Source: a virus. From it: DNA of 64,000 nt. Below, piece after piece: positions 1 through 31,000 of this stretch (within the stretch, counting starts at the first letter, position 1; every line of letters begins with the position of its first letter). Both the position numbers and the translations under genes were made by a program. The notes under the pieces were generated by a model that saw nothing but the letters and a program-made list of their open reading frames with translations, did no database searches and was not told where the DNA came from. The stretch is from positions 1 to 64,000 of the IMG/VR virus record IMGVR_UViG_3300032288_001804; one strand, given 5' to 3'.

Positions 1-196
1 GTAACTCCTCTTAATCGTACCAGCTATACTATAATGGTATAGACGAACTTAATGAAACTGTTCTCATCGTATAGGAGATAGGGTTAGCTTTCCCGATGTC
101 ATTTAAAAAGGCAAAATGTGTTGATCCCTTGAGAAAGGATCTAGTTGGTGGGTCATCCAGTTATGACACAACACTGAGGACTTCTCATCCTCAAAT

Positions 197-341
197 AGTC
201 AGGTGGCGGAATGGTAGACGCACCCAAAGTATGTGAGGGAAACATAATTATATAGATAGTTTACTGCCTTAAGGTAGTAAGTCCTGAAAGTTTAAACTTT
301 TAATTGTAAAAGTTATACAGGTTCGAATCCTGTCCTGACTG
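197..341 (+). ncRNA. tRNA-like RNA (Leu-type D arm) with a ~95-nt expanded central domain and no canonical anticodon arm
   Basis: Acceptor stem AGTCAGG(197-203)/CCTGACT(334-340); D arm TGGCGGAATGGTAGACGC; T arm ACAGG-TTCGAAT-CCTGT (317-333); bases 222-316 contain several hairpins. Confidence 0.75.
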
Positions 342-390
342 CACTTATAGTGATGTATAGTCAATGAGTAATTGATTAAAACTATTGACA

Positions 391-406
391 CCTCGGAAAG
401 ACGAGG
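391..406 (+). other. small stable RNA hairpin between the tRNA-like genes
   Basis: CCTCG-GAAAGA-CGAGG. Confidence 0.45.
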
Positions 407-411
407 GACAT

Positions 412-528
412 AGGGGAAAGCGCAGGGCGCATAGGTTCATAAAGTGTCGGTAATCAAAACGAGTGAATAAGCAAAAGAAGCTCTGAGAGCAAAACACACC
501 TAAAGGGGTTCGACTCCCCTTTCCCTTG
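412..528 (+). ncRNA. second tRNA-like RNA with a minimal D arm and an extended central domain
   Basis: Acceptor AGGGGAA(412-418)/TTCCCTT(521-527); T arm AGGGG-TTCGACT-CCCCT (504-520); GCGC-AGG-GCGC mini D hairpin; TAGGT/ACCTA and GTGT/ACAC long-range helices. Confidence 0.65.
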
Positions 529-541
529 CTAATAATAACTT

Positions 542-745
542 ATGTTAAATAGATTACCAACTATTAAGGATAAGGTTGTATATACTAGAACTAAGCATCA
601 ATGTATATCCTGTGGTAATAAAATTCCTCCACAGAATTATATGAGATATATAACTTTTAGGTATCACCCACCCTTTACTGTATATGTATGCCGGGTATGT
701 AATGAGCAAGAGGCTCATAATTTACCAGAGGTAAAGATTAAATAA
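542..745 (+). CDS. small zinc-ribbon protein
   Basis: HQCISC...VCRVC, two CxxC pairs. Confidence 0.65.
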   Translation: MLNRLPTIKDKVVYTRTKHQCISCGNKIPPQNYMRYITFRYHPPFTVYVCRVCNEQEAHNLPEVKIK

Positions 746-746
746 C

Positions 747-754
747 TATATTTG
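747..754 (+). promoter_or_regulatory. Bacteroidota sigma70 -7 promoter element
   Basis: TATATTTG matches TAnnTTTG, 18 nt upstream of the GroES start. Confidence 0.55.
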
Positions 755-772
755 TAAAAACAAAAACCAATT

Positions 773-1045
773 ATGAAATTGCACGGAAAAAGAATTCTCA
801 TTGAGAAGCCTGTAAAACCTGAGTCTCAGGTATTATTAACAGCAGAATCTGAAGCTGCTATGGAACAAGAATGGATGAAGAGCTGGACTAAACTTAAAGT
901 ACATGCTACTGGATCTGAATGTACTAATGTACAACCAGGAGATTTGGTATATGTAGGAAACGCGTTAGCTAACTCTGAGATCATTGACATTGAGGGTAGC
1001 TTATACTTTCTTGTTAACGAAGCTGCAGTATGCATAACGTGGTAG
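773..1045 (+). CDS. groES: GroES-like co-chaperonin
   Basis: 90 aa; MKLHGKRILIEK...VHATG...VQPGDLVYV...IEGSLYFLVNE fits the Cpn10 pattern. Confidence 0.75.
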   Translation: MKLHGKRILIEKPVKPESQVLLTAESEAAMEQEWMKSWTKLKVHATGSECTNVQPGDLVYVGNALANSEIIDIEGSLYFLVNEAAVCITW

Positions 1046-1203
1046 ACATATTAAAGGAACTAGCAGTGCAGATGGATAATCTGCGTAACAATAAAACAGT
1101 TCCTTATCTTAACCCCTATAAGGGTATAGATGATTGTGTTGATCTAGTTAACCGCAAAATACGTGAGCTTGAAAGAGAAAAGTCTAATCAAGAAAGTAAC
1201 TAG
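1039..1203 (+). CDS. hypothetical protein (54 aa, not in the ORF track)
   Basis: GTG...TAG, MVDILKELAVQMDNLRNNK...KSNQESN; fills the gap between GroES and the next gene. Confidence 0.5.
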   Translation: MVDILKELAVQMDNLRNNKTVPYLNPYKGIDDCVDLVNRKIRELEREKSNQESN

Positions 1204-1588
1204 AAAACAATTAAAGATTACTGAATCTGGCCGAAGCACGGACTTTATTGCTCCTAGCTTTGGCCACGGTTGTCTTTATAACTGTAGTTACTGTATAACA
1301 CCTGATACATTAATCAGGACCCCTTCTGGTTTAAGAAGGGCGGGAGAAATTCAGGAAGGAGATTCAATAATTTCTTTTTCCCTGGATACCTGGCAATTTG
1401 AAACAGATCTAGTTTCTGCAGTTGGTGAACGGGATACTGATGAACTTTATGTAATCTCAATAGGTTCAAGAACTGTGAATGTAACTGCTGAGCATCCTTT
1501 CTATACAAAGAATAGAGGTTGGGTAGAAGCAAAAGATCTAACTGTAGATGATGAACTGCTTTATGATACTGATGATTTAGACCAATAA
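1163..1588 (+). CDS. spore photoproduct lyase-like radical SAM enzyme, N-terminal part, fused to split intein N-fragment (IntN)
   Basis: SGRSTDFIAPSFGHGCLYNCSY followed by intein block A CITPDTLI (Cys1 at 1292) and block B VTAEHPFY; ends in an acidic tail and a stop; exact start codon uncertain. Confidence 0.9.
   Translation: MSLKEKSLIKKVTRKQLKITESGRSTDFIAPSFGHGCLYNCSYCITPDTLIRTPSGLRRAGEIQEGDSIISFSLDTWQFETDLVSAVGERDTDELYVISIGSRTVNVTAEHPFYTKNRGWVEAKDLTVDDELLYDTDDLDQ
1292..1585 (+). mobile_element. split intein N-fragment (98 aa)
   Basis: C1 nucleophile, TxxH block B, GWVEAKDLTVDD motif; 21 acidic vs 8 basic residues. Confidence 0.9.
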
Positions 1589-2138
1589 TATTATTGGTAT
1601 CATAAACGTCTATGTTTGCTAAAGCACAGAACCACCTAGGTAATATATGGTGGTAGTCAATGTTATCAGTTAAACCTGATAAAGCACATTCTTTAAAGTC
1701 TAACTGCTTTTTAAGTTTTAACCAGCTACCATCTGTGTAATCTGTGCTTGGAGCATTGCCGTGTATATAGTTAGGATTACCCTTACCTTTATACATAGTA
1801 GATATAGTCCTGCCTTGCTGCTTCTTACCAAGACCTTGTATTCTGCAATGAGTACAATAACCGGCACGAGCTTTAGATTTAGGACTTTGTTCACCGCAGG
1901 TTTTACATATGACCCATTTAGTACTAGCAGATGGTAATGTTTTATCAATAGTAAAAAGGCTACCTTCAAACTTCTTCATAGTTCTGAAGTCCTTGTTATA
2001 AAACTTACCAGCTTCTTGAAAGGTTCTAAACATAGGTTTAGTATCTTGGCTAAATAAAGATGTATAATTTTTTTCACAGGTATCATTGCAATAGGTTGTA
2101 TCCTTTTTTGTAATTTTACCACAATATAAACAGTTCAT
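1314..2138 (-). mobile_element. free-standing HNH homing endonuclease, antisense, between and overlapping the intein halves
   Basis: Probable start MNCLYCGK (2138); Zn-ribbon CxxC motifs; NUMOD-like KGKGNPNYIHG; HNH core YHHILP...NNIIGLNHQYHKAVH. Confidence 0.85.
1560..1606 (+). other. RNA hairpin/palindrome at the IntN stop codon
   Basis: 1560-1576 pairs with 1590-1606 (17 bp, three G-U pairs) with the TAA in the loop; a perfect palindrome ACCAATAATATTATTGGT lies at 1581-1598. Confidence 0.65.
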
Positions 2139-3015
2139 GAATCTTGAATTTAAAAAGATAACTTCTATTAATAAGATAAGTAAAAATTCTAAGGTTGTCA
2201 ACTTTTCTGTAAAAAATAATGAGAACTACTTTGCAAATGGTGTGTTAACTCATAACTGTTATATGAAACGCCACCGTCCTACGGGAGTACAGGTGGCAGA
2301 TAATGTAGATGATGTATTAGCTGCTATAACTGAGCACTACGTGGACAATGTTTATTCAGATTGGTATAACCAAAATAAGCCTAATCAAACTGATGACCAT
2401 TATATAACCTATGATATAGGTAGTAATGAAGATCTTGCTTTGCATGCTAAGTACTATGATATAGACCATATTTTTAGAACTACATATGGAAGAAGTCATC
2501 TTAAATTCTCGTTTGCTACTAAGTATGTGAACTATGATTTACCTGATGTTTCTGCTAGTATTAGAATTAGGTTTAGTCTTATGCCGCAGAAGTATTCGGA
2601 TGTGCTAGAGCCCGAGACCAGTTCTATTATAGAAAGGATCCAGGCTATAGATAAGTTTATAGATAAGGGTTATGAGGTCCACATTAACTTTAGCCCTGTT
2701 GTAGTAACAGATACTTGGCTAGATGATTACCGAGATTTGTTTATGCTTGTAGATGAGCATGTTACAAATAAGGATAAAGTAAAGTGTGAGGTTATATTTC
2801 TTACCCATAATGAAAAGAAGCATGCGTATAACCTACTGAATAATATCTCCGGCGAGGATATGCTATGGACTCCTGAGATTCAGGAAGATAAGATATCTGG
2901 TAATGGTGAAAAGAATATTAGGTACAAGCATGTGCTAAAGAGAGAGTATATTAATCAGTTTAAAGCACTGCATGATATACTGATACCTTGGTGTACAATA
3001 CGTTATATTTTCTGA
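2137..3015 (+). CDS. split intein C-fragment (40 aa) fused to the C-terminal part of the spore photoproduct lyase-like radical SAM enzyme
   Basis: VVNFSVKNNENYFANGVLTHN|CYMKRH (blocks F/G, HN then Cys+1 at 2257); SplB-like YDIGSNED, FATKYVN, IRFSLMPQ, VHINFSPV. Confidence 0.9.
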   Translation: MNLEFKKITSINKISKNSKVVNFSVKNNENYFANGVLTHNCYMKRHRPTGVQVADNVDDVLAAITEHYVDNVYSDWYNQNKPNQTDDHYITYDIGSNEDLALHAKYYDIDHIFRTTYGRSHLKFSFATKYVNYDLPDVSASIRIRFSLMPQKYSDVLEPETSSIIERIQAIDKFIDKGYEVHINFSPVVVTDTWLDDYRDLFMLVDEHVTNKDKVKCEVIFLTHNEKKHAYNLLNNISGEDMLWTPEIQEDKISGNGEKNIRYKHVLKREYINQFKALHDILIPWCTIRYIF

Positions 3016-3016
3016 T

Positions 3017-3325
3017 ATGAAAACAAGTTATAGAAACAGGCATGGTGATGTAATCACCTTTGAGAAAAAAGATAATGTAATAGAGATGACTGGTTTTGGT
3101 GAACACTTCCGCTTAGGAGGATGGCCCAGTGAAAAAGGGTTTCCTAACTATAAGTTTTCTATGATAGACCCTAGCGGTGGACCATACATTACTGCGCAAG
3201 CAGAGTGGCATGGTGAAGAGATGAGCGGTACAGATATGGGAGATTTCCTATATGACTGGCAAGGTCTTAAAATAGAATACATTACAGTAGAAGAAGGGTT
3301 AGCTAAATTACATTTATGTCATTGA
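3017..3325 (+). CDS. hypothetical protein
   Basis: ORF in operon; NRHGD and IDPSGGPYI motifs. Confidence 0.7.
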   Translation: MKTSYRNRHGDVITFEKKDNVIEMTGFGEHFRLGGWPSEKGFPNYKFSMIDPSGGPYITAQAEWHGEEMSGTDMGDFLYDWQGLKIEYITVEEGLAKLHLCH

Positions 3326-3657
3326 CAAAAGAAGAAGAGGAAAGAATCAAGATTGCTAATCTTGTAGTGTGGCTGCAGATGTGTGTATTTGCAGCAGATG
3401 AGACCATGAATATTACATGGTTTAATAGGCATAAGACCAAGTATGCTTTAAATAACTTTAGTGATACCGTTGTTAAAGAACATGGTAGACTACTGAAAGC
3501 ATTCTGGGATATGCCTGAACAAATAGATATGCCTAATGTGTGTAACAGGCTATCTGAATTTGCGGAACTCATAACCCACATGGATTATGCAGAGATGCAG
3601 GACGTAGTAGAATTAATTAAAAATTATTTAAAAGAAAAAAGAAATGGAAACACTTGA
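3316..3657 (+). CDS. hypothetical protein
   Basis: ORF overlaps both neighbours in the operon. Confidence 0.65.
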   Translation: MSLTKEEEERIKIANLVVWLQMCVFAADETMNITWFNRHKTKYALNNFSDTVVKEHGRLLKAFWDMPEQIDMPNVCNRLSEFAELITHMDYAEMQDVVELIKNYLKEKRNGNT

Positions 3658-3943
3658 TGTGTGTGCAATTGCATTTTGTACCTATGCCGTAGGTATGCTA
3701 GTAGGACTTCTTATTAATAATAAGAAGATTAAGAATCTTCAAGAAGAGGTAGCTGCGGTAGATAACTCTTACATGGACTTATTAGATAAGTACATGGTGT
3801 TATTTAGTTCACATAAAAATCTTATTTCAGCTAGATCTAAGACTATTAGACGTGGACCTGGAAGACCTAAAGGAAGTAAAAATAAACCTAAACAAGATGG
3901 CAAACCAACTACCCGTAAGTATACGCGCAAAAGTAGTAAATAA
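3644..3943 (+). CDS. membrane-anchored protein with a C-terminal AT-hook
   Basis: N-terminal hydrophobic helix, coiled coil, RRGPGRPKGSKNK. Confidence 0.65.
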   Translation: METLDVCAIAFCTYAVGMLVGLLINNKKIKNLQEEVAAVDNSYMDLLDKYMVLFSSHKNLISARSKTIRRGPGRPKGSKNKPKQDGKPTTRKYTRKSSK

Positions 3944-4271
3944 GAACTTAGAGATAGATCCTTTGGGGTCTGCTAAGCTAGGCTTATTTATTAAAGGATT
4001 ACAAGAAGGTGAAACAGTTATTATCACCTATGAAGTTCAAACTGAAGATGCTAGCTATGCTCAAATAAGCAAAGTACATAAGCATATTCGCGAACTTGCT
4101 AACTATACTGGAGACTCATTTGAAGATATGAAGCTTCAAGTTAAGTTGCGTGCAGGACTTTGCACTGACACTAACTGTAAGTCATTTTCGGAATGTGATA
4201 AAGAAGAATTATCTATGGCTATTCAGGCTTCGATTGAGATTGGGGAGCTTGTGGGTTTTTCTCTGTATTAA
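3897..4271 (+). CDS. NinB/Orf-like recombination accessory protein (putative)
   Basis: Start MANQLPV; SYAQISKVHKHIRELANYTGDSFEDMK...KSFSECDKEELS resembles the NinB pattern. Confidence 0.5.
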   Translation: MANQLPVSIRAKVVNKNLEIDPLGSAKLGLFIKGLQEGETVIITYEVQTEDASYAQISKVHKHIRELANYTGDSFEDMKLQVKLRAGLCTDTNCKSFSECDKEELSMAIQASIEIGELVGFSLY

Positions 4272-4566
4272 CCCGTTCTCCAGTTTCAATATCTATTTCA
4301 ATTTCTTCCATTAGACCTTGTTCTTCAGCAAGGTCTTCTAGGAAGATTTGAAATGCCATGACGGTATATATATGATAGGCTAGCGGGGTTTCTTGCTTGC
4401 CTTCTTTTATATCCTCCATGATTTGCTTAAAGTGCTCTTTATCTTTGTATTCAAAGTGTTCACCGAGCATTTTATTAAATCTATAATAGAAAATACCGGG
4501 TATTTCAGCTTTGATAACTTTACTCTTATCAATGATTTTTACCTTTTGGGTTTTCTTTTCAGACAT
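4219..4566 (-). CDS. hypothetical protein, lone minus-strand gene
   Basis: Start MSEKKTQ; preceded by a TAAGTTTG promoter element. Confidence 0.65.
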   Translation of the reverse strand: MSEKKTQKVKIIDKSKVIKAEIPGIFYYRFNKMLGEHFEYKDKEHFKQIMEDIKEGKQETPLAYHIYTVMAFQIFLEDLAEEQGLMEEIEIDIETGERVNTEKNPQAPQSQSKPE

Positions 4567-4583
4567 AATAATTTTATTTGTAA

Positions 4584-4591
4584 CAAACTTA
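4584..4591 (-). promoter_or_regulatory. Bacteroidota -7 promoter element for the minus-strand gene
   Basis: TAAGTTTG on the minus strand, 17 nt upstream of ATG 4566. Confidence 0.5.
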
Positions 4592-5292
4592 TGACTCAAG
4601 AAGTTAACATACAAGAAATTAGTCAAAAACTTTATGATAAGGTAAGAGACAAAGGATGGAATAAACTTCGCACTTTTTTATTATCATCTGATATGGATGA
4701 TATCTTAGAAAAATTAGTGAAAGAAGTTGAGCAAGGTAAACGCTTTACTCCTCCTGTTAAAAGTCTATTTACCGCTTTGGAAAAATGCCCTATAGATAAC
4801 GTTAGAGTAGTTATTATAGGACAAGATCCCTATCCACAATTAGGTGTTGCGGATGGTATTGCGTTTAGTTGTGGCAATACAGGTAAGATTGAGAAATCAT
4901 TACAGTATATGCATAGTTCAATTAAAGATACTGTTGATGCGGAATATGTAGGAAGTCCTGATTTGTCCCCTTGGGTGGAGCAGGGTGTGCTTATGTTAAA
5001 CTCAGCATTAACTACAACTATTGGCAAACCAGGTACGCACCAAGAATTGTGGCAACCGTTTATGGCCTATCTCCTAGATATACTGACTCATCATAAAGAT
5101 GGTTTAGTATATGTATTTTTAGGTAAGAAAGCGCAAGAATTTGCTGATATGGTACCAGATAGCAATCACAAGATTATGGTATCACATCCTGCTAGTGCTG
5201 CATATAATGGAAGTAAGTGGGACTGTAACGACATGTGGAATAAAATTAATAAACACCTAGAAGAAAATGGTCAATCCCCTATATCCTGGTAG
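4591..5292 (+). CDS. ung: uracil-DNA glycosylase family 1
   Basis: GQDPY, GIAFS, QGVLMLNSALTT and HPAS motifs; start at ATG 4591. Confidence 0.95.
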   Translation: MTQEVNIQEISQKLYDKVRDKGWNKLRTFLLSSDMDDILEKLVKEVEQGKRFTPPVKSLFTALEKCPIDNVRVVIIGQDPYPQLGVADGIAFSCGNTGKIEKSLQYMHSSIKDTVDAEYVGSPDLSPWVEQGVLMLNSALTTTIGKPGTHQELWQPFMAYLLDILTHHKDGLVYVFLGKKAQEFADMVPDSNHKIMVSHPASAAYNGSKWDCNDMWNKINKHLEENGQSPISW

Positions 5293-5566
5293 AATTAAGA
5301 TAAAAACTGTACTAGACCCAAGATTTGGTGAAGTGCATTTTGAAATAGAAGGAAGTAATATTAAGAACAAATGCCTATATGATGCGTTATCTGATTATGG
5401 TGTTAACTTAGAAAGAGCTAAAGAAATCTCTGAAGATCTAGCTAAAGATACCAATAGTGGAAAGTATTATCATATGGAGCTAATAGACTATGTAACAAAT
5501 GGCAGAAAGCGACGTGAAGAAGTTGAGGAAAAGTATTCGGGAGGATCTAGCTCAACTAAACTATGA
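5267..5566 (+). CDS. hypothetical protein
   Basis: ORF in operon. Confidence 0.55.
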   Translation: MVNPLYPGRIKIKTVLDPRFGEVHFEIEGSNIKNKCLYDALSDYGVNLERAKEISEDLAKDTNSGKYYHMELIDYVTNGRKRREEVEEKYSGGSSSTKL

Positions 5567-6020
5567 TTTAAACTTAGCAGTAGGTAAATTTTTTAATAAC
5601 ATCCAAGCTAATCTAAACAAGTATGATAAATACATTGGTGAGATTAATGCTCTTGTACCTGGTGTAGATAGCTTTAAAGTTATTATAGATCTGGCCGAAG
5701 AGTTGTATCCTGATGATTCTCCTTTCACAAAGAAGATGAAGTATCGTGGTACACAAACTGTTATTATTCGACAAGCTTGTTATTTAATAGGTGTAGAACT
5801 TGGTTTAAGTTATTCCCATATGGTAAGAGTACTCAATGATTTACACGGAGAAAAGGTTACACATCACGCTACTATGTTACATGGTGCTAATAAAACCCGG
5901 ACTGCCTTGGAGATTAAAGATAAGGCCGTATTACCTATATGGAGTAATCTTATGGCTTCTCTTCAGGAAAAACAAATAAAGAAATCATTTGTATCTTTAG
6001 CCCCTATAGATAAGCTATGA
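5499..6020 (+). CDS. DnaA domain IV-like helix-turn-helix protein
   Basis: IRQACYLIGVELGLSYSHM...HHATMLHG resembles the DnaA C-terminal RQxxMYL...DHTTVLHA. Confidence 0.6.
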   Translation: MAESDVKKLRKSIREDLAQLNYDLNLAVGKFFNNIQANLNKYDKYIGEINALVPGVDSFKVIIDLAEELYPDDSPFTKKMKYRGTQTVIIRQACYLIGVELGLSYSHMVRVLNDLHGEKVTHHATMLHGANKTRTALEIKDKAVLPIWSNLMASLQEKQIKKSFVSLAPIDKL

Positions 6021-28083: not shown

Positions 28084-31000
28084 TATTGTTCTGTTGCTAT
28101 GTTTTTACGTCTTGTTTCCATTGTTTTTTGTCTACCTGCAGGGTCTATAAACTGACCACTTAATCCAAAGAACTGACCAAGTGTTGAATACCATTTCGGA
28201 TCACCAGCTTTTTCCCAAGGATATACACCAGAGTCTTTTTGATAAATACCAGATCTATTATCAGTAATATCTGCTGCAATGTAGCTAACTAAGTTTATTG
28301 TACGGTTAACCGTAGGATTAAGCATAGCACCCGTTTTAAGGTTAAATATACTAGTAAGATTGCTAAGTCCATAACCTGGCCATGCTAACCAGTCTTCTTG
28401 GTCATGACCTACACGAGTTGTAATATACAAAGCTTGTAGTTCTAACCAATCTTTTGGTCTAAATACGGCAGATTCTTTTTCAATATCTCCATATAAGTCG
28501 CTTTCAACCTCAGCCCCTAAAATTGGTAAAGGACCGCTTCTTCTATAAAGCTTTTTCCAAGTATCAGGAGTTGGTAGTTGTTCTACAGTACCTTCTTTTT
28601 TACGCTCTTTAATTCTTCTTTTTAAATAGCTTTCAACATCTCCTGTTACAAGTAATCTTGCTTTAGCTTTTAAGTCAGCTTGTCTTTTCTTTTTAGCTTG
28701 TTCTTCTATAGCTTCTTCTTCATCATCATCTGGATTATAACCAAAAATTACAGATTTCATATAGCCAATAGCTATTAACATGCCTATCCATCTTACACTT
28801 TTCATCATATAGACACCCTCTTCTCTTGAAGGAGATGCTAATCCTGAACCATATGTTCTTACAGCTTTAGTAAGATAGTTAGCTACAGCACTAAAGAATC
28901 CCATATGGATGTCATCATTACCCCAATCATATCTTCCAACACCTTTACCAGCAAGTATATTACCTTTTACACCATAGTGATTTATCAACATCCTTGTAAG
29001 GTGTGTTTGAATAAATGATACTATTCTGTATAAAGCCCACTTCATTGCTTGTGGTTTATTAAATTCTCCAAATGCCCCGTTTATATTAGATATGACGGTT
29101 TGCATTCTACTTTTTACTTTTAAGAATTCTGGACCATTGATATCATATTTAGGGTCTACACCATCTTTTAATTTTATAAGACCATCTGGACCTTTTTCCC
29201 AAGCATTTAAATAATTTATATACTTAGTCTCACCATTTACAGTTTGCTTAACTTTTTGATAGTGCATCAATGCACCCATAGTTTGCATTGTTGCTAACAT
29301 TTCAAACCACTTACGTGTGTTAGTCATGAAGTTAAGTCTTACTACGTCACCTGCAAGATTTCTAGCAAGACCGTCATCTAAAGCTCTTTTTTGGTAATCT
29401 TCTCCAGGATCAAAAAGCTCAATAAGCTGACCTGTAACTGACTTAGGACCTGTTTTATAGATCTCTGCAGTCACAGTACTCATAGCTTTTACACCAAAAA
29501 CTTTTCCTGCTTGTAAACTAATTGGGTTAATATACTTAAATCCCCAGCCTTCAATTTTTAATTCCATTAAGGCATCATAGTAGTTTACAAGAGCGCTACT
29601 CGGGTCTAAAGCAAAGTATCCAAATGACGCTACTTTAGCCATTCCACCAAATAAATTATTTATTGCTACAGCACCGCCACCTTTTCCATATTTTTGACCT
29701 TCAAATTCCCTAGCGATAAGGTAATCTAACGCTTCATATCTAGGAGTTTCCTTAAAGAAGCCAACTACTTTTTCTTTTTTGGTCTTTTTATCTTGTTTCT
29801 CAGATGTAATTATTTCACCTAAGTTATCTAACTTATTCTTTTTATAAACTCTTTTTCCAGTTTCAGCATCCTTAACATAGTAGAATTCTTTCATAGCTTT
29901 AGCCATTGGAGATAATTCAACAAGCTTTTGATGCTTTTCTAAAGATGCCATATAACGCATTGTACTTTTTACAAAGTTTCTTGATACGTTATTCATTTCA
30001 ATATTAGACCTACCTTGAATAGGAATTTTTGAGTTTTGTTTAGCAAAGAAGCTTAGTGATTCTACTTCATAGTCTTCGGTAAAGTTTGCATCACCTTCTT
30101 CAAATGATCCAGCTCTTGGTGTGAAGAATCTTATTACATCCTCAAACCAGCGACTGAAAACCTTTGGTTTTTCTAAATTAGCTTTACCAGATATTTTTCT
30201 TTTTGTATTTCTTAATACATCCCCTATGTCCTCTGCAATATCTGTGGTATATCTAGGAAGCTCCAAATACATTTTAGTGCTGCGATCCTTGCCTTCTTGA
30301 ATACCTACATAAAATTCTTTATACTTTTCAAGAGCATCAAACATAGCCTTATTAGTTCTACGAAGTTCTAAATAACGCTTGTTTATAAATGGACTATCTG
30401 CAGGAGCACCTTGTGTTAAACGTTTAGGTAACCAATTACCTTTATTATCTTTGTTAGGTGGAATAATATTACCATTTGCATCTTGTGTGTTAGGTAATAT
30501 TTCTTCAGTTAAAAATTCTGGTTTAACATCAAACGTATAGTACTCTAAGTTAGGTACTGCTAATAGTGTTTCTTTTACAAGATTTCCTTTTTCATCTTTT
30601 TCTAAAGTTGCTGTAGGTATCTCAATACTTTCAAATAACTTATCATCTGCAGGCTGGCTATAGTTCCAAACTTGTAGTCTTTGCCAAGAATCTACCCAAC
30701 CACCTTTACCATCATAAATCTTTACTCGTATGTGATTTTTATCAAACCATGTTGCAAACTGTGCATTTTGAGATTTGATATTATCTACAACGTCATCTGC
30801 TAAAAAATAATCAGCATCGCTTTCACTTATATAGTTAACACCTAAATCATCAATAACAAATTGAGTATCGACAAGAGTTAGATAGTTATTATATATATCT
30901 AGGTAGTATGTATTAGCCTTTTTCTCACTAAGACTTCTTAATGTTTTATAAGCTGTTGCTAATGCTTTGTTCTCATCTTTAGTTAAACCATTGTAAGATT

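Follow-up and report, generated by a model that had tools for sequence, protein, structure and literature searches.

An HNH endonuclease gene antisense to one half of a split intein in a viral radical SAM gene

Two kinds of previously described locus come closest to the one reported here. The first is the fractured gene, in which a host gene is broken at a split intein. Dassa et al. (2009) describe 26 fractured genes with GIY-YIG or Vsr-like endonuclease genes, whose 3' ends overlap the downstream gene of the C-terminal intein half (IntC) by 6–69 bp, and propose a co-transcription model; HNH genes are only predicted there to be able to do likewise. From the co-transcription model and the description of the overlap, these endonuclease genes are read here as lying on the host strand. 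In the second kind, endonuclease open reading frames (ORFs) run antisense within inteins. LAGLIDADG ORFs of this sort are known from contiguous inteins (Gorbalenya 1998; Gogarten 2002) and Vsr-like ORFs from inteins described in a preprint (bioRxiv 10.1101/2025.01.02.630785), where such ORFs are said to lie typically outside the splicing domain. The present locus is found in a 64,000-nucleotide (nt) stretch of viral DNA, positions 1 to 64,000 of IMG/VR record IMGVR_UViG_3300032288_001804 (hereafter the window), and is a combination of the two kinds in a new form. It is very probably a 965-bp mobile cassette that consists of the half-genes for IntC and for the N-terminal intein half (IntN) together with an antisense HNH gene of the free-standing type, and the C-terminal tail of the HNH protein, encoded opposite IntN, is very probably translated and functional.

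As in the fractured genes of Dassa et al. (2009), the host is present as two adjacent, co-oriented genes, IntN and IntC stand at the break and an endonuclease gene lies between them. The loci again come mainly from phages and metagenomes, an intein half and the endonuclease gene are joined by a coding overlap, and the model of invasion by a free-standing endonuclease is shared. Unlike the GIY-YIG or Vsr-like genes of that paper, which are read as lying on the host strand and overlap the start of IntC, the gene in the window is an HNH gene on the opposite strand. It has only the sequence CATG in common with the IntC start, and runs antisense over ~93% of IntN for 275 nt. With the antisense-ORF inteins (LAGLIDADG and Vsr-like) it shares an endonuclease that is antisense within the intein, and a pattern of presence and absence that indicates movement as a unit. 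However, the intein here is split, the nuclease is of the HNH type, the ORF passes through almost the whole N-terminal splicing domain, and selection can be measured in two frames. The Rv2578c-family radical SAM proteins (NCBIfam NF038136) also carry an intein in a radical SAM protein and give weak partial matches to the intein region. Theirs, however, is a contiguous bacterial intein family, and the scores here are 17–24 bits against a cut-off of 700. A literature search, with most subscription journals lying outside it, found no account of an antisense HNH gene that overprints half of a split intein, and no report of these radical SAM hosts.

Organization and conservation of the locus

Positions 1163–3015 of the window hold a radical SAM gene of the spore-photoproduct-lyase (SPL) family, interrupted by a split intein at the third cysteine of the CxxxCxxC motif. 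The features of the locus are as follows.

1163–1291, plus strand: N-extein of the SPL-family radical SAM gene; ends ...GCLYNCSY with the first two cysteines of CxxxCxxC; the GTG at 1163 is taken provisionally as the start
1292–1588, plus strand: IntN, the N-terminal split-intein half, 98 aa plus stop; Cys1 at 1292, stop at 1586–1588; Pfam PT-HINT
1314–1588, both strands: dual-coding stretch of 275 nt; IntN codons 8–98 on the plus strand, HNH residues 184–274 plus stop on the minus strand
1314–2138, minus strand: HNH homing-endonuclease gene, 274 aa plus stop; ATG at 2138, stop at 1314–1316
2137–2256, plus strand: IntC, the C-terminal intein half, 40 aa; ATG at 2137–2139, ends ...THN; TIGR01443 and Pfam Intein_splicing
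2257–3015, plus strand: C-extein, SPL-family radical SAM enzyme; begins with the +1 Cys (CYMKRH...); Pfam SPL PF20903 and TIGR03886

The plus-strand ORF at 1163–1588 reads ...GHGCLYNCSY and continues into the N-terminal half of a Hint domain, while that at 2137–3015 encodes IntC, ending in THN, followed by CYMKRH... and the remainder of the SPL-family protein. IntN matches Pfam PT-HINT (E 1.3e-10; 42.1 bits, cut-off 27.7), and an alignment with 30 relatives shows that its block B motif, T-A-E-H at codons 65–68, is kept in all of them. IntC matches NCBIfam TIGR01443 (intein_Cterm; 20.3 bits, cut-off 15.6) and Pfam Intein_splicing (E 3.3e-4), and its C-terminal His-Asn stands directly before the +1 Cys of the C-extein (THN, then CYM). 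The C-extein is above the cut-off of Pfam SPL PF20903 (E 1.3e-13) and matches TIGR03886 with an E of 2.3e-71, a value obtained by the C-extein alone and under the full-length cut-off. Hallmarks of a class 1 Hint split intein are present: N-terminal Cys nucleophile, block B TxxH, C-terminal His-Asn and +1 Cys. The halves lie on separate polypeptides, with 548 nt between the IntN stop (1586–1588) and the IntC ATG (2137) and a change of frame; ~60 related loci likewise have a separate IntN stop and an IntC start of their own. The layout is that of a fractured gene, with two co-oriented adjacent host genes, a split intein at the break and the endonuclease gene between. The +1 Cys of the C-extein is also the third Fe-S cysteine of CxxxCxxC, so that the motif is restored across the splice junction. 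This placement on an Fe-S ligand suggests that activity of the enzyme would depend on splicing.

The minus-strand gene had been recognized in a preliminary description made from the sequence alone, and its account of the gene was borne out. The ORF runs opposite to its host from the ATG at 2138 to the stop at 1314–1316, its start overlaps that of IntC back to back, both proteins begin Met-Asn, and the last 275 nt are antisense to IntN. The catalytic-helix residues GLNHQYHKAVH (HNH residues 186–196, at 1551–1583) are encoded by the same bases as the C-terminal residues of IntN, and the usual zinc cysteines are replaced there, the CxxCH of tail-less relatives being absent. Two zinc ribbons (residues 3–21 and 78–98) are followed in the protein by a GxxNPNY motif, the HNH core (~129–198) and a helical tail (199–274). 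The match in PHROGs is to phrog_8048, 'HNH endonuclease' (E 1e-4, residues 149–197).

A search of 1.84 billion cluster representatives returned 43 relatives of the HNH protein, the genomic contexts of which were deduced from other loci and not from their own contigs. About 25 of the 43 are full length (260–290 aa) and carry the tail, with 32–46% identity and matches reaching residue ~270. Residues C78, C81, C95 and C98 of the second zinc ribbon, N121, N123, G127, H163, H164, P167, N183, H192 and H196 are invariant in the alignment, and tail positions L200, D201, P206 and L208 are nearly so. For H163, H164, N183, H192 and H196 this holds in sets of 24 and of 33 sequences of 28–75% identity. Outside the overlap the gene accumulates 1.08, 0.84 and 2.33 changes per site at codon positions 1, 2 and 3 of its own frame (Fitch counts on a tree), a pattern which indicates that this portion evolves as an ordinary coding gene.

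An AF2 model of the protein (mean pLDDT 83.5) contains a beta-beta-alpha core with strands at 160–164 and 184–188 and a helix at 189–197. Residues 191–240 are all helical with pLDDT 87–97, and 241–270 are modelled with moderate confidence. When the model was compared with 48,161 chains using VIA-align, the ten best matches were all HNH nucleases, with middling Z. The best are two small phage nucleases, GVE2 HNH (PDB 5h0o; chain A, Z 6.3, root-mean-square deviation 2.8, 73 aligned residues, 129–206) and T5 SciA (PDB 9qgx; chain A, Z 5.9, root-mean-square deviation 3.9, 91 aligned, 128–231), which match within residues 129–231. All three proteins have the conserved His-His, Asn and His in common. 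Identity to the two phage nucleases is only 8–16%, however, and the protein of the window differs from them in its two N-terminal zinc ribbons, in its tail of ~75 aa and in having no CxxC pairs around the core. Several of the alignments reach residues 231–240, which suggests that the first helices of the tail are part of the nuclease domain. Foldseek against the PDB with the same model gave no match at E <= 0.001, and an ESM Atlas search with the tail alone gave no usable match.

Several points weigh against the assignment. Pfam and NCBIfam HNH models do not match the 274-aa protein, the CxxC zinc pairs of the HNH core are missing with only C151 left, and the alignment behind the AF2 model is shallow (33 rows). 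The assignment by sequence rests on the PHROG match of 1e-4 and the invariant His and Asn residues, joined by the middling structural Z. Zinc CxxC pairs are present in many HNH subfamilies but not in all, and do not define the superfamily; tail-less relatives (L040, L042, L043) keep CxxC ... CxxCH. Taken with the codon-position pattern, the comparisons support a real, selected coding gene on the antisense strand.

The arrangement is conserved well beyond the window. IMG/VR contains 35 related loci with HNH proteins 69–76% identical to that of the window. The region is covered in 31 of them, where the minus frame is open for 302–303 codons from stop to stop and the ORF, where measured, is 273–274 aa long. 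In all 31, IntN lies antisense over the HNH 3' end with an overlap of 272–284 nt, and IntC starts back to back at CATG. More distant loci were collected with a profile of distant members, run over viral and metagenomic data, and hidden Markov models were built for HNH, IntN and IntC. In every distant locus where the HNH gene bears the tail (~30 loci, 31–43% identity), the 3' end of that gene is overlapped by an antisense IntN for 239–338 nt, with an unchanged relation of the two frames, and IntC lies upstream on the opposite strand where the contig reaches. All relatives whose match ends at about position 190 (L040, L042, L043, L072–L079, L081–L091) have no intein nearby and end just past CxxCH. 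The survey of orientation that the preliminary description had called for found the HNH gene opposite to the host strand in all ~60 loci examined.

The hosts fall into three groups, two of the SPL family and one of AmmeMemoRadiSam-like radical SAM proteins, and the break always precedes the third Cys of CxxxCxxC. Two copies, of 61–65% GC, are in bacterial metagenome-assembled genomes (MAGs). A Trueperaceae MAG (L136; OZ243913.1, 3893065–3899865) carries an intact cassette in a chromosomal SPL-family gene, and a Rubrobacteraceae MAG (L137) carries one in a chromosomal SPL-family gene with the HNH gene broken. A search of genome contigs with the A3 alignment found nothing, and a class-2 HNH query then gave these two MAGs. 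In the GenBank phage collection, neither megablast with window positions 1–6000 nor tblastn with the HNH protein gave a match and a C-extein query gave one weak match, while the single distant proteins P0013 and P0009 found nothing when used as queries in viral contigs.

Mobility and decay

A protein search with the C-terminal host half identified 44 loci. The 11 closest (L092–L102, 77–84% amino acid identity), together with L133 and L134, have no HNH gene, no IntN and no IntC. Their host gene specifies a single unbroken protein, with ...CLYNCSY continuing directly into CYMKRH.... In the closest three (L092, L093, L098) the N-extein DNA is 95–97% identical to that of the window, the N-extein protein sequence is identical and the neighbouring genes are the same. 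The empty-site junction in these relatives is ...AACTGTAGTTAC^TGTTATATG..., and its precision defines the cassette as exactly window positions 1292–2256, or 965 bp. The C-halves of cassette-bearing relatives are only 50–63% identical to that of the window. The cassette is thus polymorphic, present or absent at one exact site, which is the pattern that a homing element gives, and the occurrence of the cassette at the same motif in two radical SAM families indicates past movement.

Decayed copies of the HNH gene are also found. Frameshifts occur in L041, L049 and L060, the first ~146 residues are lost in L080, and the gene is broken in L137. The cassette of L041 lies at positions 1–3753 of a 548-kb viral contig of a huge phage (IMGVR_UViG_3300033145_003233), in an AmmeMemoRadiSam-like radical SAM gene. 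Besides the frameshift, ~1.7 kb with two other ORFs lies between the HNH gene and the IntC half-gene there, and the halves of the host gene are ~2.5 kb apart. In L080 (968–1363) both zinc ribbons are gone, and an ATG-started frame of ~123 aa retains the HNH core and the full tail, which is still open over IntN (P(open) about 0.001); this copy represents a relic of recent origin or else a minimal nuclease. The preliminary description had proposed that entanglement with the intein prevents loss of the nuclease. This holds for the overlapped third of the gene, which cannot be deleted without destroying IntN, but not for the rest, where frameshift, N-terminal deletion and breakage do occur.

Such decay, together with the lost zinc cysteines and the lack of a Pfam HNH match, could mean that the cassette is a fixed relic whose HNH protein is inactive or recruited elsewhere, the intein-less alleles representing old loss or ancestral absence. 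This is improbable. The catalytic His and Asn residues are invariant across the family and the whole HNH ORF is under purifying selection. Moreover, presence and absence are precise among nearly identical phage backgrounds while the exteins of cassette-bearing relatives are much more distant, and the insertions at one motif in two radical SAM families imply that the cassette has moved.

Selection on the two strands of the overlap

Within the overlap the third codon positions of IntN are the second positions of the HNH frame, the second positions of IntN are its third positions, and the first positions coincide. With this frame relation nearly every change alters at least one of the two proteins. 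The sequence just outside the overlap in the same gene serves as an internal control. Among 27 distinct class-1 sequences, diversity at codon positions 1, 2 and 3 is 0.20, 0.16 and 0.50 in the N-extein and 0.09, 0.03 and 0.47 in IntN codons 1–7. In the overlap (IntN codons 9–98) the values are 0.09, 0.12 and 0.07. Followed codon by codon, third-position diversity in IntN is ~0.5 through codon 13, and from codon 14 it is zero over dozens of consecutive codons. This abrupt change between codons 13 and 14 falls where the conserved HNH tail (...PFL) ends; beyond that point, the final few residues of the HNH protein vary.

Counts of changes agree with the diversities. In the host frame, IntN codons 1–13 show 0.77, 0.62 and 3.69 changes per site at positions 1, 2 and 3 and codons 14–98 show 0.80, 1.02 and 0.47 (Fitch counts; the underlying tree comes from this very region, and discordance may inflate the extein counts). 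Third-position changes therefore fall 8-fold, from 3.69 to 0.47, exactly where the conserved HNH tail begins. The distinct variants observed in the overlap include 45 of the 167 possible changes that are synonymous in HNH only, 20 of the 167 that are synonymous in IntN only and 36 of the 431 that change both proteins. These classes indicate constraint on both frames, somewhat stronger on the nuclease tail than on IntN. Dual-frame constraint, the absence of which the preliminary description had named among the grounds for refuting its reading, is thus seen in diversity, in Fitch counts and in variant classes alike, and ~85 codons (IntN 14–98) encode both an intein half and a nuclease tail under selection in both readings.

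The antisense frame is also more open than expected. IntN codons redrawn at random from the local codon usage would place ~5 stops in the antisense frame, for a P(open) of ~0.003 per sequence, yet the frame is open in all 30 class-1 relatives and in the distant ones as well. In distant loci of 30–62% GC, from AT-rich to mid-GC, P(open) is 0.000–0.02. Third-position diversity of IntN is lowered inside the overlap in the other two classes as well (0.20 vs 0.64 and 0.43 vs 0.67), and between classes the tail is conserved at 34%, compared with 27–41% for the rest of the nuclease and 39% for the opposing IntN.

It could be argued that the HNH protein ends, functionally, soon after the catalytic helix, and that the 75-aa tail is tolerated read-through whose conservation is a by-product of selection on IntN. 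The tail-less relatives are complete HNH proteins, and conservation of the tail must partly track that of IntN. Some of the data also weigh against a functional tail. For the two copies from bacteria, which are rich in GC (61% and 65%), P(open) is 0.27–0.50, so an open frame is expected by chance and these copies are uninformative on dual coding. Copies with a damaged HNH N-terminal part keep the tail open, which means that an open frame alone is no proof of present function, and the relatives are not independent samples. However, read-through predicts that IntN third positions are free, whereas no other class is as constrained as they are, with 0.47 changes per site compared with 3.69 immediately beyond the overlap. 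Variants synonymous in HNH outnumber those synonymous in IntN by a factor of 2.25, the boundary of constraint matches the end of the conserved tail and no block of the intein, and P(open) for the class-1 frame is about 0.003. In addition, the helices at 200–240 are modelled confidently by AF2 and several alignments to solved HNH nucleases extend into them. Read-through is therefore very improbable.

That IntN synonymous sites are instead held at the nucleic-acid level, whether by RNA structure, by an antisense RNA that controls the half-gene or by a site in the DNA, is scarcely credible: patches invariant at all positions upstream of both starts show that such constraint exists elsewhere in the cassette, but the overlap has three-base periodicity in the HNH frame over ~255 nt (1.02, 0.80 and 0.47 changes per site at HNH positions 3, 1 and 2, an order like that of the HNH core), a stop-free frame is kept across relatives of 31–76% identity, and Rfam finds nothing in the overlap. 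By these comparisons the antisense overlap is one in which both frames are kept open, each under purifying selection specific to codon position.

A different kind of constraint is seen around the divergent starts. The HNH and IntC ATGs share CATG inside the palindrome TTCATGAA (2134–2141). Only CATG is kept among the relatives, the 8-nt palindrome and the Met-Asn pair being particular to the window. The overlap of starts is itself restricted to the window's class, and in the other classes the divergent starts are 60 to ~1700 nt apart. Two candidate signals lie at this point.

2173–2201, minus strand: candidate HNH promoter inside the IntC coding sequence (TTGACA, 17 nt, TATCTT), from a consensus scan; the consensus may not be the promoter type of the host
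2089–2124, plus strand: patch conserved at the nucleotide level upstream of the IntC ATG, inside HNH codons 5–17; candidate translation-initiation or promoter region of the IntC half-gene

The consensus scan gave a second candidate HNH promoter at 2213–2186. The promoter hexamers coincide with IntC codons 11–13 and 18–27, where third positions are almost invariant in 24 relatives. On the other strand, all three codon positions are nearly invariant in HNH codons 5–17, and codons 1–15 show 0.67 third-position changes per site versus 2.48 in codons 16–183. Third positions of the two frames coincide near the starts and coding would leave them free, so the constraint there is at the nucleotide level. 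These invariant synonymous patches just upstream of each start fit the earlier suggestion that the expression signals of each gene are embedded in the coding sequence of the other. Against the promoters themselves, one base of the first hexamer (TTGACA) varies among the relatives, and promoter-like sites are no more frequent than in shuffled sequence. No Shine-Dalgarno sequence is found at either start, as is the case for other genes in the window, no terminator-like sites were found in the same signal scan, and an Rfam scan of positions 1–3200 gave nothing relevant. A TTG at 2201 was considered as the true HNH start and rejected: the ATG at 2138 aligns with the starts of all relatives, and the extension is hydrophobic with third positions that are invariant and not free.

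Surroundings, proposed mechanism and significance

The window belongs to a 96-kb virus record with an estimated completeness of 81% and 35% GC. Within its first ~25 kb nearly every gene lies on the plus strand. Besides the HNH gene, the sole other sizeable minus-strand ORF in this portion is one of 135 aa at 4219–4626, which begins MSEKKTQKVK after an upstream TTG and overlaps the 5' end of the plus-strand ORF at 4393–5292. Further along, positions 28086–56958 of the minus strand contain four very large consecutive ORFs of 2739, 3327, 2071 and 1493 aa, and ORFs of 871, 912 and 529+ aa follow, all on the minus strand. Two stretches near the beginning of the window, 190–345 and 400–535, have tRNA-like acceptor, D and T arms, each stretch being ~50–60 nt too long for a tRNA. 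One example is GGTTCGAATCC, which has matching acceptor halves at 196–202 and 334–340, and GGGGTTCGACTCCCC lies near 505–520. ARAGORN detected no tRNA in the window and Rfam reports nothing for these two stretches; they may represent tRNA genes that contain an insertion or intron, or else tRNAs that have decayed.

Anatomy, conservation, purifying selection in both frames, empty-site alleles and decayed copies of the cassette are supported directly by the comparisons above. For minus-strand transcription, for the activity and target of the nuclease, for trans-splicing and for the order of evolutionary events we infer the following from the sequences. The HNH protein would nick or cut the intein-less allele in a co-infecting genome at ...TGTAGTTAC^TGTTATATG..., and recombinational repair would then copy the cassette into the cut allele. 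The two half-proteins would associate via IntN and IntC and trans-splice, rebuilding CxxxCxxC, with the +1 Cys doubling as splicing nucleophile and Fe-S ligand. The last 91 HNH codons, comprising the end of the catalytic helix and the helical tail of ~75 aa, would be part of the functional protein. As to origin, the HNH gene may have entered the intein in reverse, or come to lie in it in that orientation, its frame then extending into the antisense strand of IntN.

The preliminary description also suggested that antisense insertion is what split the intein. This is plausible because there are free-standing relatives without the tail, and because every member that is associated with an intein is antisense and has a split intein. 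However, contiguous inteins with antisense endonuclease ORFs have been published, so antisense insertion is no necessary cause of a split. The tail is found only in the intein-associated clade, which indicates that it was most likely born by overprinting, as an ancestral short HNH gene extended into IntN. We favour, with some reserve, the broader view that the C-terminal domain of the HNH protein (~75–90 residues) arose in this way on the antisense strand of IntN and has been functional through the whole history of the family.

If so, that history would span divergence to ~30% identity and would take in two host families of radical SAM proteins as well as phages and bacteria of at least two phyla. 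Among well-supported cases of antisense dual coding in the DNA of prokaryotes or phages, the overlap would be one of the longest and oldest, and the cassette would be a mobile element with physically inseparable nuclease and splicing functions. In bacteria and phages, few long antisense overlaps are known with a selected protein encoded on each strand, and such cases are often disputed; the internal control together with dozens of diverged copies makes dual constraint unusually clear in this case. With this locus, the fractured-gene route by which free-standing nucleases enter inteins now includes the HNH family, the opposite strand and radical SAM hosts, and nature provides an example of a domain born by overprinting on a conserved fold. 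The locus also adds new natural split inteins (98 + 40 aa, Cys +1); their many orthogonal variants may be of interest in protein engineering.

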